Source: an uncultured Candidatus Bathyarchaeia archaeon
GTDB lineage: Archaea > Thermoproteota > Bathyarchaeia > Bathyarchaeales > Bathyarchaeaceae
Assembly: GCA_964618695.1 (NCBI GenBank)
Contig: CAZUDX010000001.1
Location: 268,886 to 332,885 of the forward strand
Direction: 5' to 3'
DNA length: 64,000 nucleotides
Part shown: piece after piece, positions 2,477 to 56,000 of the stretch
Layout of the letters: every line of letters begins with the position of its first letter
Position numbering within the stretch: position 1 is the stretch's first letter
Made by a program: the position numbers and the translations under genes
The notes under the pieces: generated by a model
Databases searched by the model: none
Seen by the model: the letters and a program-made list of their open reading frames with translations, nothing else
What the model was told of the DNA's origin: nothing

Positions 2477-3700
2477 CTAAACCAAAAGGTCTACGCACGG
2501 CTTTTGCGTTTCCATGATGCCTAAAGATTCTTTCCAGATGCCCAACAATTTATCAACTTCTTTATGAACATTAAAGTCTGCTTCGATTTTTTCTCTTCCA
2601 TTCTCGCCTATCCTGACACGTAAGTTTTCGTCATCTAACAAGGTTTTAATCACGTTCGCTAATTGTTCAACGTTTTTAGGCTCTACTAAAAGTCCTTCTT
2701 TTCCAGTTTCTATAAGCTCGGGTACTCCCGAAATATTCGTAGAAACGGTTGGTACCCGAAGATACATGGATTCCATTAAAGCCACGGGGATTCCATCCAT
2801 ATCTCCATTTTTTCCTTTTACGCACGGTAGAACGAAAATCGTTGCTTTACGTAACTCTTCAAGTAGAGAATCGTCACTTAAATTTCCCAAAAACTCAACA
2901 TTCTCTTGCAGATTCAAAAATTCAACCATTTTCCTTAATTCTTTTTCAAGAGGACCGGAGCCTACAATTACATAACGAATTTTTGGATAATGCTTTATCA
3001 ACTCGTTAATTGCAATAATCCCATATCGTATTCCCTTTTTTTCCACCAGTCTCCCTATCGTTAGGATTCTGAAAGGTTCCGGGTTACTTTTTACGAATTT
3101 GAGTTTAGCAAGATTAGAGCATGCTCTAACTACGTGAATTTTGTCTTTGTCAACACCTGTAATTTCATGCAAATAATCTCTGTTGTATTGAGAAATGGTT
3201 ATTATCGCTGATGCCAGCTCCATCCGTTGTTGTAATGCTTTTTTGTTAGGATTCACAAAGATGTCCACTGCGTGACCTGTGAAAGTAAAAGGAATTCCAA
3301 GTTTTTTCGACATCAACATCGCCGTATGTGCAGCCATATCACTAAAATGAGCGTGTAAAACGTCTATTGGCAAATCTTTCGCGATTTCAGAAAAGTATTT
3401 TGCTGCAGCGATGGATAGTACCTTAGTACTCAATTTTTCGCAAGAATGTTTCCACCCGAACGACCCAAAAGATTGCAGTGCTATTTTTATCTGGTTCAAT
3501 CTCAATCTTGGATTTTGAAAATAGTGAACATTGCTCCACAAGTTGAACTCGTCGAGTTCTTCGTGAAAAATACCGTTTTCGGGAGGAAAAATAGAGAATA
3601 CATGAACATTGTGACCTTCTCTTACAAGCTCTACAATTTCGTTTAGAACAAACGTTTGAGTAAGTTGCGGAAAAGTAGAAAGCACATATGCTATATTCAT
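2477..3700 (-). CDS. Glycosyltransferase family 4 (WcaL-like)
   Basis: 407-aa ORF. GRLVEKKG...VGSGPLEKEL...DGIPVALMESMYLRVPTVSTNISGVPELIETGKEGLLV matches the GT4 EX7E-type C-terminal domain. Confidence 0.85.
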   Translation of the reverse strand: MNIAYVLSTFPQLTQTFVLNEIVELVREGHNVHVFSIFPPENGIFHEELDEFNLWSNVHYFQNPRLRLNQIKIALQSFGSFGWKHSCEKLSTKVLSIAAAKYFSEIAKDLPIDVLHAHFSDMAAHTAMLMSKKLGIPFTFTGHAVDIFVNPNKKALQQRMELASAIITISQYNRDYLHEITGVDKDKIHVVRACSNLAKLKFVKSNPEPFRILTIGRLVEKKGIRYGIIAINELIKHYPKIRYVIVGSGPLEKELRKMVEFLNLQENVEFLGNLSDDSLLEELRKATIFVLPCVKGKNGDMDGIPVALMESMYLRVPTVSTNISGVPELIETGKEGLLVEPKNVEQLANVIKTLLDDENLRVRIGENGREKIEADFNVHKEVDKLLGIWKESLGIMETQKPCVDLLV

Positions 3701-4428
3701 TGGGGCACCTTTAGCTGGTCAATGGGCTTTTGTGGATGTTTTAATTGTTTTGAACATGCGAAATACCAGCCGCTAGACATAAAATGTGGCAGATTGTCGG
3801 CTAGTCGGCAGTCTAAAGTAGCTAAGAAGGTGTCACGCAAAAAGGGTAGAAACATTATGAAGTCTGAGTTTTGGATGAACAAAATCTGGAACCCTTTCTT
3901 GCCCAATAGCCTTTTCAATCGTCCGATAGTGAAGTTTGTTTTGTGTGCTTGACCCTGTCGTTGTTTTTTCTGCAAACCAATTCGAACAAACAACTTTCTG
4001 GAGAGTCTTTGCGGAGTCTCCGAAAACACTTCGTAAGGTCCCAGTCCATTAGGAACTGTAAGGAAAAGAACCCCACCACGTCGGATAGCCTTAGCGAGCT
4101 GATTGATGACGGTTTCTGGATTGTCAACATGCTCAAGCACTTCAGAACATATTATAACATCAAACTTTCTTTGTAGCTGGTCAATCTTTTCAGCCTCAAG
4201 AAGCATGAAAGAGGCGTTACTGTTTTTATTACTCTGTGACGCAAGTTGAATGCGATCTGGATTAATATCAATTCCCAAGACGTTGTGACCTAGTTTGGCT
4301 AATTCCAAAGCTACAGGTCCTTCACCACAACCAACATCAAGGATATCTAGAGCTCCTTTTTTTCTTGCCATAAATTCTATAGCAGTGAATATGGATCTTA
4401 GCCTCTTTACGTCAAGTGGTCTCTTCAA
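3697..4428 (-). CDS. Class I SAM-dependent methyltransferase
   Basis: 243-aa ORF with ILDVGCGEGP motif I, GIDINPD, and VIICSEVLEHVDNP (Methyltransf_11-like). Has 4-nt overlaps with both neighbouring genes. Confidence 0.8.
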   Translation of the reverse strand: MKRPLDVKRLRSIFTAIEFMARKKGALDILDVGCGEGPVALELAKLGHNVLGIDINPDRIQLASQSNKNSNASFMLLEAEKIDQLQRKFDVIICSEVLEHVDNPETVINQLAKAIRRGGVLFLTVPNGLGPYEVFSETPQRLSRKLFVRIGLQKKQRQGQAHKTNFTIGRLKRLLGKKGFQILFIQNSDFIMFLPFLRDTFLATLDCRLADNLPHFMSSGWYFACSKQLKHPQKPIDQLKVPQ

Positions 4429-7400
4429 TCTTGAACTTGCCCTTCCAAAATTCCTAAGTAATAAAGCTCAAGCGTCTCTTCAGTAGATCTCTGATAATAG
4501 TACAGTTTTAACTTCGCACCATTTTCGAGTAGTTCCGATGGGATTGCAATCAAGTTGTTACCGGTAGTTAAAACGCCCGTCACTATATCTCCTTTATCAG
4601 AGATTAATTCAAAAAGAATAGGTGATTGTAATGAGAGACTGTTAATGGAAATTGCCAGATTCTTCTCAGGGGGATTTCCAGTTATTGCAGGTATCACTCC
4701 TTCCACGCCAACAAGGTGCATTTTCAATTCGACTTGGTCTAGGTAGTAAGTGCATGAGCCGCCAGTGAAGCTTATTTCTACATAGTCGATCTTGCCCCAT
4801 GTGGGATTCCCAACACTTTTGAATGAGCTTAACGGAATTGTGAAATGTTTCCATCCAACAAAATCATCAGTTATTGAAGTGAGATACAAGTCTTCCCAAG
4901 TGCTCTCTTCCACGGTATGAAAACTTATCTGAATAGGATTGGTTGTGTTTGCACCATAAAGGTAAAAGCTTAATCCGCCGTAAGACCTCCAGTCTTGGGA
5001 TTCGCTATAACGATGTTTAAGTGCTACGCCCTCCTCCGCGTCAATGTACACTTTTAGAGAATTGGTTCCATGTTCTTTTATTGACTCCTCGTTGCTCAAG
5101 GTTATTTCGTCTTCTTGGTTAATCTTGTCGCCATACCAAAATGCGTCCTGATAGTCATCAGCAATCACGTTGAAGTTCTCCACTAGAGGACTTACACTTA
5201 TGCCTCCATCAAGACCGCTGACATTAGTATAATCATTTAAAGGAACCCAGCCATACTCAAAGGAAGCCAAATATTTGTAAGTCTGTTCAGCCTCGTCTTG
5301 CGTTATTATCGTATAAAGATTAAACTTTGAAAATTCTTTTGACGACAGTACATAAGGAGATCTGCTGAGTAAATCGATATTTAGTGCTGGGAGTTTTTCA
5401 CTAAGATCTTCAAAGAATTCATAGTATGTATGATTGGAGTTTGGGAACAACAAATAGCGTATGTTACGATCAATGAGACCGTTTTTTAAGTCTTCTACAC
5501 TGTCGCCATTAAGATTCTGCAAGTTGATCACTCCATAAACACTGGTCACCTCAATTACAGGGTGCTTAGTAAAGTACGATAAGTGATGAGCGTGACATGT
5601 AATTATCGTGTAATCATCTTGTAGCTCTTGATTGAAATAGGGTATAACCTCATCGAGATTGTTCTGCCAACCCTCAGGAAGGTAGTAAACATTTTCTTGA
5701 ACATTAATAACAGCGTTCAATGACACAGGCACCAATGAAAAAGAAAGCAGTCCTATGAAGATGAAAGGAAGAAACGAATGAGAGTGATGAAGTAGTTTCC
5801 CAAATATTCTACGAGTCGACTTAAGATTGGGTATAGGAAGTAGAAACAACACTACAAAGAAGAAGGCAAAAACTATCAGCATTTCAACACCAGCAACACC
5901 TAACGAGCGAAACAATCCATCATTTATGTGTGGAATGCCAGAAGCGCCAATGTTGAACTTAAACGCCCATAAATAAATAAGAGCTAAACAATCGAAGATT
6001 GCGAAGCGGGCTACTAACGAATGCATAGTGCCTGTAGCTTCAGCTATCTTTTTTATTCCCATTGCAATGAAAATTGCGAATAGTGGAGCGAAGTAATATA
6101 GTCTCCGCAATTCTGGTCCCTCATATTTGTTATAGAAGGCCCAAGACCAGAAAACAAGCAACATCAGAAAGAATGACAACAAAAGAAACGATTTTTCAAT
6201 ATTTCTCTTCTTGAAAAAATCATGGATAGAAGTAAATAAGCCTGTGAGACTCGGAATCACGAAAATAGCGCCTAGACTAATAGCACTGAATAAAACATCC
6301 CATCGCAGAATATCCAAAATAGTGGGCAGATTTCTTAGAGCCCCAACTTCTGCAGTTATTGAAGGCATCAAAGCCCCAGCTGCAATATAATTTTCGTCCA
6401 ATAAAATGAGAAGCGGGATAGGTATTCCACCAACTAGGAAATTTCTAGCACAATAAAAAATGAAAACGATTAAAGGAACACTAAAACAGATCAGGTGGCG
6501 CACGCTAATTATTTCTGACAAGGAATTAGCTGCCAACATTTTGTAAAATAATGGTAGAATTAGCACGAAGACCACAAGAACAGGTAATTGTCTAATTGCA
6601 TAACCAAACAATAGGTGAATGGGGAAATGAAACAGGTCCCAGATAAGAAAAACGTTGTAAGAGATAACAAAAATAATTGATAAGCCAATTGCTGAGACTA
6701 TGGTTAATTTTTTTGCACGTGAAAGAAGAAGCAAGAGGCCCAACGCGAATAGCGAAGGCAAGAGTATGACACTTACCTCTTTTACTAGCAGCAACAGGCT
6801 GATTGTTGATCCTAACATGAACCACCAAAAGTTGGCATTTTCATATTTTCGGTAAATTTTTAGCAGAACGAGTCCTGCTGAATAGAAAAGAAATGTGAAG
6901 GGCACATCCAAGTATAGACTATAGTTAGAGCTTACCGCTAAGACAATTGGCATCGAAATAAAAGAGATGGCTCCTATGATGGAAACTTTTGAATCCTGTG
7001 AAATTTCCTTCGATATGAGATAAACTACTATACTGGTTAGAACGATGTAAATAAATGGAAAAACTCTTACAGCAAGGTCAAAAGTAACTGCGCTGTTGCA
7101 AAGAAAATTGAACCACGCATACACTAACGGTATTCCTGGAGGGGTCGGCGACAACATATCGGTTTGCATGTAATAATTGTATTCTAGTCCAGCTGTTTTC
7201 ACTATAGATTCTGCTTTGGGCAGATAATAAAAAAACGCATCATATTCTGCGAAAATAGAGTGTGATGTTGTGAACGCAAATATGACTAGCAGCAAGAGTG
7301 CACATAAACTCAGCAGGATAAGGTCTTTTGTGCTGGGGCGAGGGAAAGGTTTGTTTTTTCTGACAAAGATGAAGTAAACGGAAGATGCTAAGATCACCAA

Positions 7401-7589
7401 GCTAATTATCGTAAAAATCAGGAAGAAATCCAATATTACGGAAGAAACAGCGCTAATTATGTAACTGAAACCTATGAGCAAGAAATTCCAAATGAGACTG
7501 CCAAACACTATAACTTCCAAGGATGATAATTTGATCCTGTACTTTGATGAAAGCCAGTACAGTAGTACTAACCCGGGAAGAAAAGCCAA
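4425..7589 (-). CDS. Large polytopic membrane protein, GT-C-like, with a C-terminal extracytoplasmic beta-rich (carbohydrate-binding-module-like) domain
   Basis: 1054-aa ORF. About 620 aa of repeated hydrophobic helices include an acidic loop (AEYDAFFYYLPKAE) early on, as in GT-C enzymes. The soluble C-terminal ~400 aa ends in a CBM/CIA30-like pattern (SLKVYIDAEEG...WRSYGGLSFYLYG...WKHFTIPLSSF...IDYVEISF). Confidence 0.55.
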   Translation of the reverse strand: MAFLPGLVLLYWLSSKYRIKLSSLEVIVFGSLIWNFLLIGFSYIISAVSSVILDFFLIFTIISLVILASSVYFIFVRKNKPFPRPSTKDLILLSLCALLLLVIFAFTTSHSIFAEYDAFFYYLPKAESIVKTAGLEYNYYMQTDMLSPTPPGIPLVYAWFNFLCNSAVTFDLAVRVFPFIYIVLTSIVVYLISKEISQDSKVSIIGAISFISMPIVLAVSSNYSLYLDVPFTFLFYSAGLVLLKIYRKYENANFWWFMLGSTISLLLLVKEVSVILLPSLFALGLLLLLSRAKKLTIVSAIGLSIIFVISYNVFLIWDLFHFPIHLLFGYAIRQLPVLVVFVLILPLFYKMLAANSLSEIISVRHLICFSVPLIVFIFYCARNFLVGGIPIPLLILLDENYIAAGALMPSITAEVGALRNLPTILDILRWDVLFSAISLGAIFVIPSLTGLFTSIHDFFKKRNIEKSFLLLSFFLMLLVFWSWAFYNKYEGPELRRLYYFAPLFAIFIAMGIKKIAEATGTMHSLVARFAIFDCLALIYLWAFKFNIGASGIPHINDGLFRSLGVAGVEMLIVFAFFFVVLFLLPIPNLKSTRRIFGKLLHHSHSFLPFIFIGLLSFSLVPVSLNAVINVQENVYYLPEGWQNNLDEVIPYFNQELQDDYTIITCHAHHLSYFTKHPVIEVTSVYGVINLQNLNGDSVEDLKNGLIDRNIRYLLFPNSNHTYYEFFEDLSEKLPALNIDLLSRSPYVLSSKEFSKFNLYTIITQDEAEQTYKYLASFEYGWVPLNDYTNVSGLDGGISVSPLVENFNVIADDYQDAFWYGDKINQEDEITLSNEESIKEHGTNSLKVYIDAEEGVALKHRYSESQDWRSYGGLSFYLYGANTTNPIQISFHTVEESTWEDLYLTSITDDFVGWKHFTIPLSSFKSVGNPTWGKIDYVEISFTGGSCTYYLDQVELKMHLVGVEGVIPAITGNPPEKNLAISINSLSLQSPILFELISDKGDIVTGVLTTGNNLIAIPSELLENGAKLKLYYYQRSTEETLELYYLGILEGQVQD

Positions 7590-7656
7590 CAGAGGAAGCA
7601 GATAATAAAGTATCGTTGCTAACTACGCTCTAATTGATTCAACTTGTTCGCTACGA

Positions 7657-8814
7657 CTAAAGTAAGGTATCATAAATCGCTAGATATTTCTTGATTATCT
7701 TGTCCCATCGATATTCTTTTTCAACAGACATTCTAACATCTTGAGAAAATTTGCTTCTCAAGCCTTCATTATCTAATAAAGTCAACATTTTTTCGGCTAA
7801 CTCTTCCGGATTGTTAAATGAAGTTATGAAACCATTTTTGCCATCATCAATCAAGTCCGTTGCTACACCTACTGGGGTCGAAATTATTGGCAGGTCAGCG
7901 GCAGCAGCCTCCAGAATCGCCTGTCCAAAGTTCTCGTATAAGGAGGGGCAAACAAAAATGTCACCTGACTTGTACGCCTTAATTAGCTCATTTCCATATA
8001 AAGGTCCAGTAAATTCTACTTTATCAGCTAAATCCAAACGAGCGACCTTGCGTTTTAAAGCCTCTAGGTGACCTAACTTGTCAGTGAGAGTGCGCCTTTC
8101 ATCACCACCGACTATGGTTAATCTTGCGTCGTCGTTTTTTTGAGCCACGGTCTTAAATGCGTCTAACAATAGCTCCAGATTTCGGTCTTTTGTTATTCTA
8201 CCGACGAAAAGAATTCTCAAGAATCTTTTATCTCGATTAGCTTCTATTGCGTCATATTTAGCTAGGTCCACCCCTACGGGTATAATTTTTATTTTATCTT
8301 TTTCCACGCCAAATCGCACTAATTCATCAAACTCTTGTCTCGTTGAAGCTACAACATAATTAGCATGCATCAGCACGGTCTTCCGCGTGACTGCGTCATA
8401 AAAAACGTAAGGTAACTTTAGATGCGCTTTTTTAATTATTATTTCGTGTGCCACTGCGCATCCGTGGTTACTAACAACAAACGGAACATGCCTCATTTTT
8501 GAAATAAAGCAGGAGACATCAGCTTGGAAACTGCGATAACCATGCAAATGAATTATGTCCGGATGTGCTTTCAGCAATTCATGCATAATTTGAGGCGTGA
8601 ACTTGTAGGATAAGAAGCTGCCATATACCGGGAATCTGTTAACTCTTATGCCATCCATTATTTCGAAGGCAGGTGATTCTTCAGCTCCGAAGTTGGTGGT
8701 GTAGATGGTAGAATTCATCCCCGCTTTTTCACATTCTAGAGAGATTCGGTAGGCTTGGTTTGCTGGTCCAGTGACTCGTGGATAGAAACTAGGTATTACT
8801 CTGGCAATTTTCAA
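7657..8814 (-). CDS. Glycosyltransferase family 4
   Basis: 385-aa ORF. VGRITKDRNLELLLDAF...LTIVGG...FVCPSLYENFGQAILEAAAADLPIISTPVGVATDLIDDGKNGF is the canonical GT4 C-terminal domain. Confidence 0.85.
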   Translation of the reverse strand: MKIARVIPSFYPRVTGPANQAYRISLECEKAGMNSTIYTTNFGAEESPAFEIMDGIRVNRFPVYGSFLSYKFTPQIMHELLKAHPDIIHLHGYRSFQADVSCFISKMRHVPFVVSNHGCAVAHEIIIKKAHLKLPYVFYDAVTRKTVLMHANYVVASTRQEFDELVRFGVEKDKIKIIPVGVDLAKYDAIEANRDKRFLRILFVGRITKDRNLELLLDAFKTVAQKNDDARLTIVGGDERRTLTDKLGHLEALKRKVARLDLADKVEFTGPLYGNELIKAYKSGDIFVCPSLYENFGQAILEAAAADLPIISTPVGVATDLIDDGKNGFITSFNNPEELAEKMLTLLDNEGLRSKFSQDVRMSVEKEYRWDKIIKKYLAIYDTLL

Positions 8815-8841
8815 GTTAAGGCTACAATCCTGTTCGCATGT

Positions 8842-9633
8842 TTATTTCGTGCATGTAGCTTCCAGTTTCTCAGGGACAACCTGCTCTTTTGTTCTAGCGA
8901 TGGCGACTATATTTGAGTTCAAGTGATTGAATCCCGGAAGTTTTTCCATCATGCCCTCGAAAAAGTAGGTTAGCTTAATAAGCGAATTAGGAGGGTTAAT
9001 CTGCATTATTTTCGAGAATCGTGCAGCAGGAAAAGCGAGGAAGAACATGGCAAAGCATTTTTGCACATTAAAACCAGCTAAACTTAACGCGGATTTTAGG
9101 TATCCTGGGGTGTAGGGTTTTTCTCCTTCAGTGTGTGCTTCCATCGGGAAGAACTTTCGTCCAAACGCTGAGAGAGGGTTAAGCAAACTCGGCTCCATGA
9201 ACAAAAATACTGACCGAGGAAGAGAAACTCGTTTCAACCCGTCAGTTGCTTTTTTAATATCTAAGTGATGAAGGATAGAGATTCCTATGACAAAGTCGAA
9301 AATGTCTTCCTTAAACGGAAGCCTCATGGCGTCGCAAACTATGAAGTCAGCTTCAGGGCACACGAGTTTAGCGTTTTTAACCATGTTTTCGCTGATGTCC
9401 ACTCCAACAACGTTGAAACCCCATTTTAGCAACAGTTTAGAGAGCCATCCACCGCCACAGCCGTAATCCAGAATAAACTTCGGCTGCTCAGCCTTAAGCA
9501 CCTGTTTAATAAGTTCAAGTTCTCTTTTTCGTATAACATTAGGGAAGATGCTGTCATCGTAACTTTCGGTCTCGCCAGTCAAAGAAGAAACCTGCGCGGC
9601 GTCATAGACTTGTTTTTCATCAGCTATGCTCAT
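8842..9633 (-). CDS. Class I SAM-dependent methyltransferase
   Basis: 263-aa ORF with ILDYGCGGGW motif I, GVDISENM, and FDFVIGISILHHL. Confidence 0.8.
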   Translation of the reverse strand: MSIADEKQVYDAAQVSSLTGETESYDDSIFPNVIRKRELELIKQVLKAEQPKFILDYGCGGGWLSKLLLKWGFNVVGVDISENMVKNAKLVCPEADFIVCDAMRLPFKEDIFDFVIGISILHHLDIKKATDGLKRVSLPRSVFLFMEPSLLNPLSAFGRKFFPMEAHTEGEKPYTPGYLKSALSLAGFNVQKCFAMFFLAFPAARFSKIMQINPPNSLIKLTYFFEGMMEKLPGFNHLNSNIVAIARTKEQVVPEKLEATCTK

Positions 9634-9658
9634 AGATAAGGCTCGCTTATTTCCGTCT

Positions 9659-10867
9659 TTATGTTACTGTTTTGAAGATTTCTATCATTTTTGAGCCAAT
9701 AGCCTCAATGGAGGCTTCATGCTCAACGTATTTTCTTCCGTTCTCGCCCATCGTCTGTGCTAGGCAAGGATTTTGTTTCAGCTCGATCACTGCTTTAGCC
9801 AAAGCTTCATAATCTCCGGGACAAACGATTAAACCCGAATTCGTTTCTTGCACGTAAGCCCTAGGCAAGCCTCTACTACAACAAATTATCGGCTTTGCCA
9901 CTGCCTGATATTCATAAAGCTTAGAAGACATACCACGATAAGGCGTTTTAAAATTTGCGAGTGGCAAAATCAACACGTCAGCTTGACCTAAAAACTCACT
10001 CACGGCTTCCCTAGAAAAGAGTTCGTCAACAATTCGCACGTTCCCCACGTTCAACTCTTTAACCTTAGAACGCATAGAATCCAAAAGTTCACCCTTCCCT
10101 TGGACAACAAACTCCACGTCATCATCTAAATCTTCAATTATCTTGGCGGCTTTGAAAATCTGCTCAAAATCATACGCTATCGAAAAACCTCCCGAGTACA
10201 ACACAACAAATTTTCTATTATTATCTCTCTTTAAGTTGTGAGGCTTGAACACGTCTAAGTCCACGCCGCCCCTTACTACCTGAATTTTGTTTTTGTTCAC
10301 TCCATATCTTGCTATGGTTGCTATGTATCCTGGGCTTATTGGCGTCGCTGCCTTAACTTTAGCAAAGAGCACTCTCGCAAAGAATTCAGCAATTTTTGAT
10401 ACGATCGAGCCTCTTTTCACCAAATCTAAATCGTATAAATCTTCAATTATCAAATCGTCTACATTGGACACTACGCTCCTTTTCTTCAGCATGCTGTAAG
10501 CTAGAGAGGGAAAGAGTGAAAAAACGTCAGGGTTCATAGCCCAAATCACGTCGATTTTTCCAATTATCGGTAAGACAGACAAAGATGACAACGCAAATGA
10601 ACCGAAGGTCAAGAGCCTCTTAAACAAGCCCTTTGATTCTAAAGGAAGAACGAAAGTTCGGATAACTCTGATTTTGCCAAACCACTCCACTTTGAAAGGC
10701 TTATGTTTGTATTCCTTCGGTATCTTCCCATGTGGATAGTGAGGAAAAGCTGTAACAACAGTGACATTGCACCCATTCATGGAAAGACCTTTAGCAACGT
10801 TATATGCTCTTGTTGCAGCCCCTCCAAGGTCAGGAGGAAAATATTGTCCGATTATGAGCACATTCAA
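9659..10867 (-). CDS. Glycosyltransferase family 4 (WcaI/WbuB-like)
   Basis: 402-aa ORF. The N-terminus MNVLIIGQYFPPDLGGAATRAYNVAKGL...VVTAFPHYPHGKIP is characteristic of the WcaI/WbuB subgroup. The C-terminus has a GT4-like PLANFKTPYRGMSSKLYEYQAVAKPII. Confidence 0.8.
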   Translation of the reverse strand: MNVLIIGQYFPPDLGGAATRAYNVAKGLSMNGCNVTVVTAFPHYPHGKIPKEYKHKPFKVEWFGKIRVIRTFVLPLESKGLFKRLLTFGSFALSSLSVLPIIGKIDVIWAMNPDVFSLFPSLAYSMLKKRSVVSNVDDLIIEDLYDLDLVKRGSIVSKIAEFFARVLFAKVKAATPISPGYIATIARYGVNKNKIQVVRGGVDLDVFKPHNLKRDNNRKFVVLYSGGFSIAYDFEQIFKAAKIIEDLDDDVEFVVQGKGELLDSMRSKVKELNVGNVRIVDELFSREAVSEFLGQADVLILPLANFKTPYRGMSSKLYEYQAVAKPIICCSRGLPRAYVQETNSGLIVCPGDYEALAKAVIELKQNPCLAQTMGENGRKYVEHEASIEAIGSKMIEIFKTVT

Positions 10868-34138: not shown

Positions 34139-34504
34139 ATGCCCATTTCAAAGATTTTTGTAGCCAGATTCTTTCAGCTTGTGAAAGGAAGACGGTTCGC
34201 TGAAGCGGAGCGGGTACTCGAACGAATGAGATCAAAGACAAACGAAACCGAATGGAACAGCGGATACCTGCATGCTCTCGACGGCATGCTTTCTACCGAA
34301 AAATCAAGCGACTCCTACGCGTTTCTGAAGAACCTAAATCTCGATAACGAAAGTGAGCTAAAAAAATTCAGAAGAGAGTTTTTGAGGGAGTCAAGAAACA
34401 AGATTCACGCGGATTACGACCGGGGCTTCTATTCGGCTTGGGCAGATTACATGCGCATGTCAATAAAGACCCTAACAGACCAAGAAGTGCCCAAAAAAAG
34501 TTAA
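34139..34504 (+). CDS. Hypothetical protein
   Basis: 121-aa ORF starting 6 nt after the radA stop. Helical and charged, no motif recognised. Confidence 0.45.
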   Translation: MPISKIFVARFFQLVKGRRFAEAERVLERMRSKTNETEWNSGYLHALDGMLSTEKSSDSYAFLKNLNLDNESELKKFRREFLRESRNKIHADYDRGFYSAWADYMRMSIKTLTDQEVPKKS

Positions 34505-34604
34505 TTCTACGCGGTTAAAAGCTAAACAACTAAAACTGCAGAAGACTAGCGAAAAAGACCGTTAAGTCATAGTCCACATACGTGGAGCGGATCATGGTTC
34601 ATAT

Positions 34605-34835
34605 TTGAAGACTAATAACAGCAGTATGTTGAAAACAAAATTTTTCTATGAATTCTACAGAGAAGCAAAGAAAGATTATCCGATTCCCGAAAATGTTGAA
34701 ATACAATATAAAGAGTATCGAGAAAAATACAATGCTTTCTTAAGAGATTTTAGAAAACTGTGTCACAGAGTGAATGAAGAGATTGGAGAAACAACTCTTC
34801 CCGAATATGTTGGTGACTTCGCAAAAAAACTTTAG
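34605..34835 (+). CDS. Hypothetical small protein
   Basis: 76-aa ORF with a TTG start, rich in charged and aromatic residues. First gene of the more AT-rich islet. Confidence 0.35.
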   Translation: MKTNNSSMLKTKFFYEFYREAKKDYPIPENVEIQYKEYREKYNAFLRDFRKLCHRVNEEIGETTLPEYVGDFAKKL

Positions 34836-34938
34836 TTAGAGATTAAGAATTCTTGACTTCACTTGAAGTCAGGGCATGGGAAAAGGAATAGAAAAATCGT
34901 TTATATGACTTCAAATAATTTTAATTGGGGGAACAATC

Positions 34939-35685
34939 GTGACGAGTACTTTTACAATTTTTTGTCCTCATGGTATCGTTATGTCTGCTGATAGTCGTAT
35001 TACATACACCGATGCTATAACCAATGAAATATTAAGATATGTTGACGGAGTAGAGAAGGTTTATCATGTAAAAAAAGTAAATTTGGGTATTTCTTATTGG
35101 GGATTGGCGGAAATTCAAGATAAATCAATGCTAGATTTTCTAACTGAATTTGAAGAGACACAATTAGATGAGGGCGATTCTTTTGATGAGGTTGCAGAGG
35201 AATTAAAAAACCGTCTTGAACATGTAGTACCAAGAATCCGCATTAGAATGGGGTTGCACTTAGCGGGTTATGAAAAGAGGGGAGATGAATATACACCTAG
35301 ACTTCGACATATTTTTCATGAGCGATGGCATCCTTCAGGGGAATTCACTAATGAAGACAGTAACATAGAATGGCATCGAGAAGGCGAGCGAATACCCTTT
35401 CGGTCACGGAGGTTATTTCCAGTCCTATTTAATGGGGATAATGCGATAGCAAACTGTCTCTTCAACTACATACCAGCTATGACAAACGGAAGGCAGAGGA
35501 TAAGACCTGAAGTGTTGACACTTGATGAATGTTTAGAATTAGCTGAACTTGTCGTAAGTCTGTCAATCCAAAGACTCAATTATTACGTTGATACTAGACT
35601 TGAAAGAATCCCAAAAACAGTTGGGGGAAAAATTTTCGTTGCAAAAATAACGCCAACGAAAGGGTTTGAATGGGTCAAAAACTAG
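34939..35685 (+). CDS. Proteasome-beta/HslV-like N-terminal-nucleophile (Ntn) hydrolase-like protein
   Basis: 248-aa ORF with a GTG start. M-TSTFTIFCPHGIVMSADSRIT aligns by eye to archaeal proteasome beta TTTVGITLKDAVIMATERRVT. This places Thr directly after Met, an acidic residue at position 17 and Arg19. EKVYHV then matches the Lys33 segment (KKLFQI) after a 6-residue insertion. Confidence 0.55.
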   Translation: MTSTFTIFCPHGIVMSADSRITYTDAITNEILRYVDGVEKVYHVKKVNLGISYWGLAEIQDKSMLDFLTEFEETQLDEGDSFDEVAEELKNRLEHVVPRIRIRMGLHLAGYEKRGDEYTPRLRHIFHERWHPSGEFTNEDSNIEWHREGERIPFRSRRLFPVLFNGDNAIANCLFNYIPAMTNGRQRIRPEVLTLDECLELAELVVSLSIQRLNYYVDTRLERIPKTVGGKIFVAKITPTKGFEWVKN

Positions 35686-35830
35686 CTAGTCATATCTGAA
35701 GAACCAGTTTCTGCGGGTCTAACACAACAATAATTACTTTGTTTTCAATATAGACGCAATTCAGCACTAACAATGTTTCGAACACAAATCTTTTTACTTA
35801 TTAACTACGATTGTTTTTCGTTGTGAGTCC

Positions 35831-36301
35831 TTGAACATCAAGAAATATGTTTTCTTTGTTTCACACAGCACCGAAGACATGAAGGAAGAGGTTGGCGAGA
35901 TTTGTTACATTTTTAAAAAGTGTCACATCAGTAGTTTTGTGGCAGATAGAGATGCTCCAGTGGGTAAACCACTTCCTGATGAAGTCAAGAAGGCAATACG
36001 TGAAAGTGATTTATTTTTAGTATTTTTGACTGAGAAATCAGTAAAAAGTGCTTGGGTAAATCAAGAGATAGGATATGCTCTAGGAATTGGAGTTCCAGTT
36101 ATCCCTATTAAGAAAGAAGGCGTAAATCCCGAAGGTTTAATCGAATCAACAAAATATATCAACATGCAAGAAAATCCTTTAAATACTGTTCGGGAAATCT
36201 TTTCAAGACTCAAGGGTAACAAATTAAGTCCAAAAGCTAAGGCAAGCATCATTACATTCATAGGGGTATTGGAATTAAAAGAAAAGTATGGAGGTCATTA
36301 A
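35831..36301 (+). CDS. TIR-like domain protein
   Basis: 156-aa ORF with a TTG start. VFFVSHSTEDMKE...ISSFVADRD...IRESDLFLVFLTEKSVKSAWVNQEIGYA...PVIPI follows the TIR / DUF1863 pattern, including the conserved Glu after W-x-x-x. Confidence 0.7.
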   Translation: MNIKKYVFFVSHSTEDMKEEVGEICYIFKKCHISSFVADRDAPVGKPLPDEVKKAIRESDLFLVFLTEKSVKSAWVNQEIGYALGIGVPVIPIKKEGVNPEGLIESTKYINMQENPLNTVREIFSRLKGNKLSPKAKASIITFIGVLELKEKYGGH

Positions 36302-36773
36302 GTTGACTTTTAAAGTTTTTCTTGTTTCTAACATAGAAGACAGGCAACTAGCTAATGACTTGACAGAAGCTTTAGAACGCTATCAGATAAAAGTAGTTTC
36401 ACATTCGGAAATAACTCCGTTTCAATCCTACAGGTTACAAGTTGATAATCTCATAAGAACTAGTGACTGTGTTTTGGTATTTATAGGGCAGAGAGGAAGG
36501 CAAACTGATGATATGAATTATGAAATTGAAAGGGCTATAAAATCAAACCGCATAATTATTCCTCTTGTTGAGAAGGGGTCGGATGTACCAAGAGCCATTA
36601 GAAAAATGAAGTATATCGAAGTCAATAGAAGACAACCGCAAACGAGCTATGAACGAGCAGCAAAGTATCTTGAAGGATTAAAAATTGAAAAGGAAAGAAG
36701 AGATGCACTTGGAGGATTATTGTTACTTGGTCTAGGCATTCTATTATTGGCTGCTTTAGCTTCAGGAGATTAA
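36288..36773 (+). CDS. TIR-like domain protein with a C-terminal transmembrane helix
   Basis: 161-aa ORF overlapping the upstream TIR gene by 14 nt. FKVFLVSNIEDRQLA...IRTSDCVLVFIGQ...MNYEIERA...IIIPLV is TIR-like. The C-terminal segment ALGGLLLLGLGILLLAALASG is hydrophobic. Confidence 0.6.
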   Translation: MEVIKLTFKVFLVSNIEDRQLANDLTEALERYQIKVVSHSEITPFQSYRLQVDNLIRTSDCVLVFIGQRGRQTDDMNYEIERAIKSNRIIIPLVEKGSDVPRAIRKMKYIEVNRRQPQTSYERAAKYLEGLKIEKERRDALGGLLLLGLGILLLAALASGD

Positions 36774-36932
36774 CAATTGCTTTGTTTTTAATCCTGTTAA
36801 CAAAATTTTTCCTGAAAACAACAACCGAAAAGCAGATAGGAACTGCATTCAGATTTCCAATCCTTTTCCAATAAAGATATTAACTGAACCCGTCTCCACA
36901 CTAAATACCACAAAAATTTTCTTATTGGAAGT

Positions 36933-38474: not shown

Positions 38475-38631
38475 GCGAAGACGCCATTCGAGATGCTGTT
38501 TTTTGTGCGGGATGTCCTACCTGACCAGTTGATTAATCAAACTTTGAGAAGTAGTGAAATTTAGCCGATTCACAATAAGGTTTAAAAGAGATTTCCTGAA
38601 TAAAAGCTGTAAATTCGTTGGAGGACCTGAA

Positions 38632-38904
38632 ATGGTTGAATTTCCAGAGGAAGTTGTAAAGAAAGCGTTTGGCGCTGCAGACGGTAGATGCGAATGCTTG
38701 CTTGTAGAACATGGACATAAATACAATTCTATGTGCATGAGAGTACTCGATTGGACTAAACGAGGGCAGTCTTTCATTGCGGCTGATGGGCAAAAAGGCT
38801 GGGAAGCACATTGGATAGTAAGCCCAGAAAAAGGCGGGAAACCTACACAAGAAAACTGTGAGATACTCTGCTGGGACTGCTACACCAAAAAGAACAAACG
38901 CTAA
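38632..38904 (+). CDS. Small Cys/His-rich protein, HNH-nuclease-like
   Basis: I prefer the ATG at 38632, preceded by GGAGG. RCECLLVEHGH...GWEAHWIVSPEKGGKPTQENCEILCWDCY resembles an HNH/His-Me finger in which Tyr replaces the last His. Confidence 0.45.
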   Translation: MVEFPEEVVKKAFGAADGRCECLLVEHGHKYNSMCMRVLDWTKRGQSFIAADGQKGWEAHWIVSPEKGGKPTQENCEILCWDCYTKKNKR

Positions 38905-53078: not shown

Positions 53079-56000
53079 TCAAGTCCGTAAGTTCAGTAGA
53101 TAAAAGCCTTGCGTTTGAAAGCATGTTTGAAGAATCGGATTCACGTTTAGGTTGTTTCCTCTTTTTACTCAACACAACAAACGTTACGGGAAACACAACT
53201 GCTAACACGATTACCACATACAATATGCTGTTTGAGAAATGAGCGTTTGACACGGTTTTTGTGGCTTGCCCAAAATTTGGAGACTCCACCTCGACAAAGA
53301 AACTCTGAAGTGGACCCCAGTCAGTTACCTCACACGCGTATATTCCAGATTCAAGTTCGCTACATGCTTCGCCATTTACTGAAACAGCGGCGTTGACAAC
53401 CGGATTCTGGGTGTAATTATAGTTCGCATAGACCTTTATGCTCGTCACCCCCAACGCTCCTGTCTCAAACTCCAGCTGAGATATCTCTATTTTGTCCCAG
53501 ATTATTTCTGTTTTTTCAGTTTGGTCGAGAATCACTGTTAGACCAAAAGCTTCGTCATAAACAGATGACACTTCGTATACTTGTGGACCGGGAATGTTTG
53601 AAGTGACAACGTATTCCCATCTTGAGTTTCGTGATGACCAAGTCATCGGTTCGCCATTTAGGTAAAGCATCCCTTGGGAATCATCAAAACGTACAGCGTC
53701 ATACTCGTATTCAGCATTTACCCATACAAGCTGTGACGAACCCGTCTGAACAATTTCATCGAAAATGATGGAATCTGTGACCTTTACCCTGTCCCAAATG
53801 ATGGTGGGATCGTTAACGGATTTGACGTATTCGGTCAAAGTATTGTATGTGACGCCTGTAACGTTCCAAACAACTCTCCCAACAGTATCATAGCTGGTGT
53901 CGAAACTGATCCACCCTGTCTCGTTTGTAGAATATTTGATGCCGTCAACATCAACGCTTGCTCCCACAACATCCGCACCATCACTCATCCACGACACGTG
54001 GAAGCCAACGGTCTGGACGCTACCGACGTCTGCCCTCGTATCACTGACGAATATATTGTCTATCTCGATTGGCGCGAAGCCTACCATAAGCTCAACCGTT
54101 TCCCCGGTTGGAACCGAAAAATCGGCAGATAAAACACTCGTTGAAGCATCAAAATCCCATGTTGAAACCTCTTCGCCATTGACCTTGAAGTAGTAAGGTG
54201 TTGATTCGCCAGTCTGCATCTGAATTGAGCCTTCTTGTCCAGCGTTTCCGTTTGCAGAAATCTTTAGAAGCTTTCGGGACGAGTTCCATGAAAATTCGGT
54301 TAAAGGAACGGTTGACGAGACCACAGTGAATTCAGTGGTGTTCTCCCAACTGACGGTGATGTCTGAGTTAGAAACAACTGTTAGAACCTTATTCTCCGAG
54401 TCATAAGCCTGTGTTAAATCATAAGGTGTTCCAAGGATATATCGTGGCCGCTCAAAATCTGCACAATAAATCCTAGTCGTATTTGTCGCTTCTTCAAGAG
54501 CCATGAGACCAACTGTCAAGCGCTGGCCAACAAAGAGCGGAGCCCTAGTTAAATGGGTGTCCGAGTATATCACCTGAGGATCACCATCATTTTCCAGTAA
54601 TACGAATATTTTGTCTTCTTTGGGTTGCAAAGTTACGTTTAGAAGTATCATGGGACCTTTATGGACGCCGTAGAACTCGTTGTTGACATAATCAAAGACA
54701 ATATACTCTTTATCGGCTGTTAAGTCTGCCTCCAACGGTCTGACGTAATATGTGAAGGTTTGAGGAGTTGTGGAATTGTCGTGCATAAGGTAGACAATTC
54801 TGTCAGCCTGTCCATGACTTAACCAATACTCATTTTCAGGATATAGTATGTACGACATAGGTCTCACATAATAGGCGCAGAGGAATTGGATGAAGTCAGT
54901 TAAAACATCCGTTAAAACACCATTCGGCAGAGAATATGGGTTCCGAGTGTTGACAACGTAAGTGTAGCCTGCACCCTTCTTGTTTTCAACGATAAAGGCG
55001 TTAGGCCAGCTTTGTTTTCCGTTAACCCAAGCTAACACGCGGGTACTTTCGCTAGACATTATGTCGTATTTGAATTTCCAGAACCAAGAACCAGTTTCTC
55101 CCAAGTCAGAGTAATGGTAGGTTTTTCCATTCCATGGATACCAGAAAGTGTCTTGTGTAAACTCAATATTGTGCAAAAAAGTATCCGCGGTTATATCTGA
55201 ATTACTGTTAGCATGGATTGGAACGTGAAGACCAAATAGTGAAACCAAACTTTTAGTCCACGCTTGTGGGTCTTCGAGGTTATCCACGTTTTCGTTGGTG
55301 TGGGTAAACGTTAGTAGCGAGAAAAAAATTCCACCGTTTTCTACGTAATTTTCAATGTTGTTGGCGATTGCGTCGCTCATGTGGCTCCAGCCCAAGCCAA
55401 TAATGACCTTATACTGACTCAGCACTTCCGGCGGAGCGTAAATGGAGATAATATCCACCATCCCAAAGGGCAACCCTGTAAATTCTTTCGCAATTAGGGC
55501 ACTGCCAATCTGCCAGTTGTCGCCAATTCCGGGGAAGAAGATGTTCAAAAGCCTGTAGTCGAAATCTCCGTACCTGTCGGACTGCAACCATAACCCCCAA
55601 TCGGGACCGCGACTACTCCAACCGCTCTGCCCAATCATAACCGCAATAGGGGAACGATAATTTGGCTGATGATACTCTATACTGTCTACGTTTTGCAGGA
55701 AAGCATAGAATCGTTGAATCACTTTTCCATATTCGGTTAGCTTTCCGTCTGGTCCAAGAATGATGTATTTGGTTGGCCAATCGCGGTTAAGTGTTCCGAA
55801 GAAGTTGCCTTGTTCGAAGAAGAAGTATTTTGCTCCATAGAACCATCCTTCGTAGAGTGCCCTTTCGACGTCGTTTGGGGTGAAAGCTGGAGGTTTTGTC
55901 CATTCTCTCCATGTGTCTACCCAGAGTCCCCATGCAGATATGTTGTAGCTGTTGACCATTCCTCGGGCTTGACCTATCATCAATTCTACGTTTGGGGCGT

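Follow-up and report, generated by a model that had tools for sequence, protein, structure and literature searches.

What does a proteasome-type enzyme do in an archaeal genome in which neither a partner subunit nor an unfoldase is encoded beside it? The question is raised by a gene at 34939-35685 (plus strand) of a 64,000-nucleotide stretch, referred to here as the window, which covers positions 268,886 to 332,885 of contig CAZUDX010000001.1 (assembly GCA_964618695.1) from an uncultured Candidatus Bathyarchaeia archaeon. The gene starts with GTG and encodes 248 amino acids plus a stop, and its product resembles the beta subunits of the 20S proteasome. We consider it probable that the protein is a catalytically competent N-terminal nucleophile (Ntn) hydrolase of the proteasome-beta superfamily (MEROPS T1), free of a propeptide, stand-alone and mobile. 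Orphan proteasome homologues are numerous and a function is known for almost none of them, and connectase, once characterised, proved to be a useful sequence-specific protein ligase. Another proteasome homologue would not in itself surprise a specialist. The family adds a branch in Bathyarchaeia and a virus with a distinctive His-rich insertion; new and testable are the viral copy, the behaviour as a single-gene cassette in regions that appear variable and rich in defence genes, and a zinc-ribbon neighbour in sister loci. The last of these is a candidate partner or substrate and the most useful functional lead, although its role is speculative; a contextual clue of this kind was found for no family in a 2021 survey of such proteins (PMC8665760).

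Gene start and coding evidence

The open reading frame (ORF) is real and is under purifying selection, codons 2-15 included. The ratio of non-synonymous to synonymous substitution (dN/dS) for the whole gene was 0.14-0.21 against three orthologues, and within codons 2-15 the proportion of non-synonymous differences (pN) was 0.06 compared with a synonymous proportion (pS) of 0.44-0.56 (against the copies at loci L014 and L010). Downstream of an in-frame stop, the GTG at 34939 is the earliest start codon, and it is followed directly by ACG (GTG-ACG, 34939-34944), the codon for Thr2, which is the predicted N-terminal nucleophile once Met has been removed; the product begins M-T-S-T-F-T-I-F-C-P-H-G-I-V-M-S-A-D-S-R. 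Orthologues of 71-88% identity have TTG at the position of the window's GTG, directly before ACG/ACA-AGT-ACT, and the starts of orthologues, TTG or GTG, lie behind a conserved TATA-like box. Across homologues of 45-88% identity that start with ATG, TTG or GTG, residues 1-14 are conserved. A putative archaeal promoter and ribosome-binding region (34900-34932, plus strand) is made up of the TATA-like TTTATAT (34900-34906), approximately 33 nt upstream of the start and kept in orthologues, and of GGGGGA (34927-34932), 7 nt 5' of the GTG; the TTATA core and the GG-GA motif are kept in four orthologous upstream regions.

The public NCBI call for this gene (P0001, 234 amino acids) begins at the internal Met15 and so is without the catalytic Thr, and many metagenomic gene calls for homologues likewise begin there. 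Judged by the start codons of orthologues, the constraint on codons 2-15 and the Met-Thr or Met-Ser starts of relatives, the Met15 start is an annotation error and the true starts are GTG or TTG. Gene callers that pick the internal Met delete the catalytic Thr, a systematic error through which searches that rely on active-site residues miss the family.

Homology and predicted fold

In an exhaustive profile search, 1,229 clusters (defined at 50% identity) were matched at E <=1e-3, mostly of proteins of 220-280 amino acids and with matches beginning at residue 1. A search of 5.8 billion proteins gave 54 homologues, none with a Pfam domain, and cluster look-ups of the wider family returned only 'hypothetical protein' entries from Clostridia and Methanobrevibacter. 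The single sequence being invisible to curated resources, the case rests on profiles and on a structure model. A 19-sequence profile matched catalytic beta5 (E 4.6e-7), its position 2 falling on the mature Thr1, and a 98-sequence profile matched proteasome beta1 at E 1.6e-9 over positions 2-226, again with position 2 on the mature Thr1; the same profile aligned to Thermoplasma beta (1pma_B) over its full length (E 1.7e-4). In the beta1 alignment, GIVmAADS is paired with GILIGADC, KIf with KLT, the NG(D) loop with G-S-G and TVGGpIdIlvIT with ASGGCIRMASIT. A first-pass annotation, made from the letters alone, had likened the N-terminus of the window protein to that of mature Thermoplasma beta; it had noted that an unrelated fold beyond some 20 residues would undo the assignment, and the similarity in fact runs from Thr1 to the C-terminal S-G-G strand of beta1. 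The N-terminal register itself was recovered independently by HMMER, which paired family positions 2-46 with residues 1-39 of Archaeoglobus proteasome beta (1j2q_H; aligned segment TTTVGLVCKDGVVMATEKRAT...KKIYQI) and introduced the same 6-residue gap before the Lys strand that had been proposed. By our own count, 9 of the first 21 residues are identical to the aligned Archaeoglobus N-terminus. A PF00227 match had also been expected; there is none for the window protein in Pfam, and the domain is touched weakly by 7 of 19 distant members (best 4.6e-4).

The predicted structure agrees with the profiles. An AlphaFold2 model built from a 29-sequence alignment of the close family had a mean predicted local distance difference test score (pLDDT) of 92.6 and a predicted template modelling score (pTM) of 0.90. 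Its order of elements is that of a proteasome-type Ntn fold, as anticipated: six N-terminal strands are followed by H1 and H2 (64-75, 82-94), a long hairpin (104-114, 117-127), short strands (137-153), H3 and H4 (169-181, 195-215) and the C-terminal strands 232-238 and 242-247, with no C-terminal helix. Foldseek gave 79 matches in the PDB at E <=1e-3, and all 50 of those listed were 20S proteasome subunits, mostly beta; the list was led by catalytic beta subunits, the best match having E 1.4e-7 and a template modelling (TM) score of 0.66 by target length. Among viral models the best match was a siphovirus 'proteasome beta type-2 subunit' (E 3e-9, TM 0.63/0.70). The protein presents the predicted fold, the Thr after the start and the Asp/Lys/Gly register of T1 and clan PB proteins and falls short of the PF00227 gathering threshold. 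Two other matches were treated as noise: one to ClpS (NF009563, E 0.06) and one to PADLOC PDC-S09 (E 0.005, 15 bits), which was seen with the window protein and with none of 18 relatives. A tblastn search of the window protein against 50,697 phage records gave no match.

Predicted catalytic residues and proposed mechanism

The first-pass annotation had named equivalents of proteasome Thr1, Asp17, Arg19 and Lys33, and these are present as Thr2, Asp18, Arg20 and Lys40 (1, 17, 19 and 39 after Met removal). Asp18 (codon 34990-34992) aligns to D17 of beta5 and Lys40 (codon 35056-35058), which follows the 6-residue insertion, to the K33 strand; both are invariant in the 29-, 19- and 98-sequence alignments and are the sole invariant residues across the 98 relatives, in which Met1, Gly12, Gly55, Gly110 and Gly166 are each at least 90% conserved. 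The arginine is a property of the window protein and not of the family, being Arg in 14 of 29 sequences only. Gly55, within Ser52-Tyr53-Trp54-Gly55 (35092-35103), is the equivalent of the oxyanion-hole Gly47 and aligns to the G47 region of beta5; S52, W54 and G55 are invariant in the close family. Asn165-Gly166-Asp167 (35431-35439) corresponds to the proteasome Gly128-Ser129-Gly130 loop and aligns to the G-S-G of beta1, with N165 and D167 invariant and G166 present in 28 of 29 close relatives. Gly229-Gly230 and the strand GGKIFVAKIT (35623-35652) are equivalent to proteasome S169-G170-G171 plus strand S9; both glycines are conserved in close homologues, and in the wider family the sequence is TVGGPIDIxVIT, aligned with SGGCIRMASIT of beta1.

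The N-terminus, MTSTFTILCPxGIV(M/L)AADS, is among the best conserved segments of the alignment. Thr occupies position 2 in 26 of 27 close homologues, and of 181 full-length relatives 98 begin Met-Thr and 36 Met-Ser (134/181 together), the remainder being mostly obvious truncations at an internal Met. From these alignments the family is without a propeptide, as had been claimed for the window protein: the start codon directly precedes Thr or Ser in nearly all relatives. Some distant relatives (P0187, P0102) carry an N-terminal signal peptide, and in P0187 we read a signal-peptidase-like site, A-H-S↓T-T, exactly before the Thr2 equivalent; this suggests that secreted members may expose the nucleophile through signal-peptide cleavage.

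We propose the following mechanism. After translation from GTG 34939, methionine aminopeptidase would take off Met1, because Thr is permitted as a second residue under the rules of N-terminal Met excision, leaving Thr2 with a free alpha-amino group. The O-gamma of Thr2 would then attack a peptide or amide bond, with either hydrolysis or transfer as the outcome. Lys40 and Asp18 would serve as Lys33 and Asp17 do in the Thr1-Lys33-Asp17 triad of the proteasome (PMC4792962), the backbone of Gly55 would provide the oxyanion hole, and the Asn165-Gly166-Asp167 and Gly229-Gly230 loops would stand in for proteasome G-S-G and S-G-G respectively. We favour an enzyme that works on its own upon a restricted substrate over a general machine for ATP-dependent degradation, because no alpha subunit or unfoldase is linked, the gene is sporadic and mobile, and the insertion is large.

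Several observations weigh against a competent proteasome-type enzyme. The window protein alone gave no Pfam match at E up to 10 and no PDB sequence match with phmmer; it scored 11.5 bits against TIGR03634 (archaeal proteasome beta), the cut-off being 224, with E 0.16 and over residues 2-46 only, and the close-family profile by itself matched proteasome beta over 45 residues at no better than E 0.03. Asn165 stands where the proteasome has Ser129. A threonine exposed without a propeptide could, moreover, be N-acetylated and thereby inactivated.

Comparison with known proteasome homologues

The closest well-characterised relatives are the catalytic beta subunits of the 20S proteasome (archaeal PsmB and eukaryotic beta1/beta5; PF00227, MEROPS T1A), which share the predicted fold, give the best structural and sequence matches, and have the same Thr1/Asp17/Lys33/Gly47 register and a similar C-terminal GG-strand motif. 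The window protein differs in having no propeptide and no alpha partner, in its length (248 amino acids as against about 200), in the 6-residue insertion before the Lys and the 37-residue His-rich insertion after S7, and in the Asn in place of Ser129. It scores far below the PF00227 and TIGR03634 thresholds, and it is encoded by an accessory mobile gene whereas the beta subunit is a universal core gene. It is not a PsmB: the TIGR03634 cut-off, an autocatalytically removed propeptide and a linked alpha subunit are all wanting.

HslV (ClpQ) shares the Met-Thr-Thr start, and E. coli HslV was aligned in the same register over 67 columns, if weakly (hhalign, probability 38%). However, HslV has about 176 amino acids and its gene adjoins hslU, while no HslU-like gene lies near the window gene; HslV was absent from the best 60 PDB sequence matches of the profiles, and the window protein had no NCBIfam HslV match. 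Anbu and BPH, to which the first-pass annotation had compared the protein, are likewise orphan proteasome homologues with Thr1 and no known unfoldase. Both are bacterial, whereas the present family is archaeal. Anbu assembles as a split ring and carries H5, a long coiled-coil helix, at its C-terminus, while our model ends in strands; BPH is compact and without insertions. Neither was among the best 60 PDB sequence matches of the profiles. The part of that comparison which holds is a stand-alone protein in a variable, low-GC, mobile setting; a better comparison set is the one described next.

Fuchs, Alva and Lupas (2021) described 22 orphan proteasome homologues that lack a propeptide and bear insertions, some of them phage-encoded, and no informative gene context was found for any (PMC8665760). 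The window gene, compared by features and distribution, is a further member of this class: the likeness lies in the missing propeptide, the N-terminal Thr or Ser, the catalytic triad with Gly47, lineage-specific insertions, the lack of a linked AAA+ gene or informative operon, and the phage-borne copies. The distribution is consistent with the PMI group, the window protein having distant relatives in Clostridia, Methanobrevibacter and phages; PMI cluster representatives include WP_115649681.1, WP_137109689.1, OGZ26396.1 and HDY66466.1 (PMC8665760). The published table gives Euryarchaeota and no other archaea for the PMI clusters, whereas the present family belongs to Bathyarchaeia (PMC8665760). 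The insertion site between S7 and S8 is not among the four sites described in that paper, and our model fits neither WPH and ACC, with their C-terminal coiled coil, nor PHI, with a helical insertion after H2.

As a functional model we deem connectase the most relevant by analogy. It is a monomeric archaeal proteasome homologue and a sequence-specific protein ligase (PMC7980362), and like the window protein it is stand-alone and has no propeptide; connectase acts on one specific partner protein (PMC7980362). The two are nevertheless distinct. In connectase, H1/H2 are missing and a lid of two helices lies between S3 and S4 (PMC8665760), whereas the window model has H1/H2 and no lid, and connectase is confined to methanogens, whereas the window family is found in Bathyarchaeia. 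No connectase-family (DUF2121) match was found in the Pfam results for the window protein or its distant relatives.

A mobile single-gene cassette

The related loci lie in Bathyarchaeia metagenome-assembled genomes and on unclassified metagenome contigs. When the first eight of them were compared all against all, no neighbour proved to be conserved. The most telling locus is L013, which carries an 88%-identical orthologue: DNA similarity to the window (blastn, 90% identity over 831 bp) is limited to 34881-35711, with nothing outside, and ends 26 bp past the Ntn stop codon. The genes around the L013 copy, which we read as Orc1/Cdc6-, MoaC- and MoaB-like, are different ones. Because the similarity is confined to this interval and the neighbours differ, we conclude that the gene moves alone, as a cassette of one gene. 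Copies in decay point to its dispensability: that of L012 (4072-4806) is a split ORF with a broken zinc-ribbon ORF upstream, and those of L011 (5137-5718) and L038 (5378-5959) end near residue 194 and are apparently decayed. The Ntn gene is thus a dispensable, horizontally moving single-gene unit of Bathyarchaeia and of at least one tailed virus.

Elsewhere, the neighbours include DndB, SNF2 helicase, integrase and type I restriction-modification (RM) genes, MmeI-like RM, Cas1 and PLD, SLFN/AlbA_2, AAA_15 and VRR_NUC, RM genes with transposases, and a FokI/Mrr-like gene. In a plain count of families among 149 neighbours at 34 loci, the commonest were N6_Mtase, Eco57I, integrase, aldolase, TBP, Cas1, GmrSD, PLD and Mrr. 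These observations are suggestive of Ntn genes sitting in variable, defence-rich regions, and this genomic company suggests virus-host conflict or mobile-element biology and not housekeeping.

Alternative explanations

The alternative that survives best is a self-compartmentalising ring protease, non-specific and built like HslV, BPH or the 20S beta ring, which might receive its substrates from a housekeeping unfoldase encoded elsewhere. In its favour, the nearest matches in structure and sequence are catalytic beta subunits that form rings, the model has the core helices H1-H4 through which proteasome subunits make ring contacts, and Fuchs et al. raised a ring protease as a possibility for the orphans (PMC8665760). 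The same authors point out, however, that insertions may prevent ring assembly (PMC8665760), and the model has 37 additional residues after S7 and no C-terminal H5 helix. The first-pass annotation had seen no alpha subunit, HslU or PAN nearby, and we agree: there is none among the window neighbours, no other proteasome-like ORF, alpha-like included, occurs in the 64 kb, and neither a proteasome alpha nor an AAA+ unfoldase is among the 25 commonest Pfam families of the surveyed neighbours. The gene is, in addition, sporadic, mobile and repeatedly pseudogenised. On balance we regard a ring protease as unlikely, though it deserves more credit than the two explanations below.

Another possibility is that the window gene belongs to a three-gene anti-virus operon in which the Ntn protease would activate, or be activated by, TIR effectors. 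Two overlapping TIR_2 genes (35831-36301 and 36288-36773, plus strand; Pfam TIR_2 at 1e-17 and 7e-12, ThsB-like in PADLOC) do begin beyond a 146-bp gap downstream of the Ntn gene, on its strand, and share its low-GC islet. Against this, neither a TIR gene nor a homologue of either TIR protein lies beside the Ntn gene in any of 55 related loci, the 88%-identical orthologue of L013 sits between Orc1/Cdc6-like and Moa-like genes, and its DNA similarity to the window stops before the first TIR gene. The TIR genes are neighbours of the Ntn gene and not conserved partners, the adjacency being unique to the window, and we give an operon of this kind very little credence. No ThsA-like partner adjoins the two TIR genes, and the second seems, on our reading of its sequence, to have a hydrophobic C-terminal end that is probably membrane-spanning.

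Least probable of all is that the protein is a dead homologue, like alpha or inactive beta subunits, or that the Met15 start seen in P0001 and so many metagenomic calls is correct and there is no N-terminal Thr, since residues 2-14 are held by purifying selection over 45-88% identity, a start codon stands directly before the Thr in nearly all relatives, and the Thr, Asp, Lys and Gly set is kept in 98 diverged relatives, which one would not expect if the enzyme were dead.

A zinc-ribbon neighbour and a viral copy

Our preferred explanation remains a stand-alone, catalytically competent enzyme with a restricted substrate, and the related loci offer a candidate partner or substrate. Across the 55 loci compared, a small zinc-ribbon ORF is the sole neighbour that recurs at many distinct loci. 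It encodes 55-100 amino acids, and at 31 of the 55 loci (a redundant set) it is no more than 450 bp away from the Ntn gene; the background away from the Ntn gene is 0.077 zinc-ribbon ORFs per kb. It is usually divergent from the Ntn gene and upstream of it. Twenty-six of these neighbours form one family at E <=1e-3 with a hidden Markov model (HMM), with the pattern CPxCG ... [G/P]-G-[T/S]-[I/V] ... CxxCG and a conserved G-G-T loop. Examples are found at L026 839-1081 (minus strand), L005 6278-6526 (plus), L036 388-606 (minus), L041 1398-1595 (minus), L023 6765-6950 (plus) and L013 185-328 (plus). The proteins belong to no specific Pfam family and match generic zinc-ribbon models only, below threshold. 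In the 64-kb window the family HMM found nothing significant, the best match (E 0.3, 55412-55612) being unrelated. A second small protein (84-87 amino acids, CxxC...CxxC) is encoded near the Ntn gene at L004 5443-5697 (plus) and L057 2624-2887 (minus); the two copies are 46% identical and the loci are otherwise unrelated.

The pairing also occurs in a virus. Viral contig L058 (IMGVR_UViG_3300050336_000128) encodes a full-length homologue of 46% identity at 5998-6771, within a tailed-virus structural module (3055-10597) that holds both the Ntn gene and a zinc-ribbon ORF. The Ntn gene is flanked by cement and major capsid protein genes and by head-tail-connector-like and tail tube genes, the connector being assigned by our own reading of the sequence. 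The zinc-ribbon ORF (5732-5926) lies directly upstream on the minus strand and is the sole minus-strand neighbour noted, so that by its arrangement the pair looks like an inserted two-gene module.

The zinc-ribbon protein may be a partner, substrate or regulator of the Ntn enzyme. A more specific and distinctly tentative proposal, which we would not expect to hold on present evidence, is that the two form a mobile module of archaeal virus-host conflict in which the zinc-ribbon protein is a dedicated substrate, pseudo-substrate or inhibitor. Such a pair would be toxin/antitoxin-like or connectase-like, and the enzyme of the window would have been orphaned by the loss of its partner. By analogy, the Gly-Thr loop of the zinc-ribbon protein calls to mind the junction between Gly(-1) and Thr1 in proteasome precursors. 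Should the proposal hold, it would give an orphan proteasome homologue a functional and contextual clue for the first time, and no enzyme of the proteasome family would previously have been implicated in prokaryotic immunity or counter-immunity; in the literature we found nothing tying proteasome homologues to defence systems.

The His-rich insertion

The first-pass annotation had remarked on the length of the protein and on a charged insertion, both of which are borne out: it has 248 amino acids compared with about 200 in canonical beta subunits, and the segment singled out, RWHPSGEFTNEDSNIEWHREGERIPFRSRR, is residues 129-158. The insertion as a whole spans residues 124-160 (35308-35418, plus strand), between S7 and S8, with the S6/S7 hairpin before it and the NGD loop after it; its 37 residues are His-rich and are predicted to form a three-stranded beta meander, with DSSP strands in the model at 137-140, 144-147 and 150-153. 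It is restricted to close and mid-distance relatives (23 clusters at E <=1e-30), and distant relatives are without it. Of 29 sequences, 28 have H131 and all have H124, F126, H127, W130, F136, E139 and E144; most members also have C141/H142, a pair that is Ser-Asn in the window protein and in the relative closest to it. In the core, C9 and H107 are invariant in the close family as well. The conservation pattern suggests that C9, H107, H124, H127 and H131, with E139 and E144, may make up a metal site. The string H127-E-R-W-H131 resembles an HExxH metalloprotease motif, a reading that we rejected: in 5 of 29 sequences W, T or M takes the place of Glu128, prediction puts the segment at a strand end and loop and not in a helix, and the wider family does not have the string.

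Setting of the gene in the window

The Ntn gene lies in a low-GC accessory islet of 2.4 kb (34500-36900), with a GC content of 0.34-0.40 compared with 0.43-0.53 in the flanks. Between RadA and an M32 carboxypeptidase, the islet contains a 76-amino-acid ORF, the Ntn gene and the two TIR_2 genes. Upstream of it are the housekeeping genes for Trm1, a fumarase subunit and RadA, with a 121-amino-acid ORF directly after RadA; downstream, the M32 carboxypeptidase is followed by a small HNH gene and an NFACT gene. The HNH gene (38554-38904, 116 amino acids), just downstream of the carboxypeptidase, encodes a stand-alone endonuclease. A perfect palindrome, TGACTTCA-CT-TGAAGTCA, is found at 34854-34871, just upstream of the cassette boundary, and a third TGACTTCA copy (34906-34913) overlaps the Ntn gene's TATA-like box at its end; the palindrome could be an operator or a terminator.

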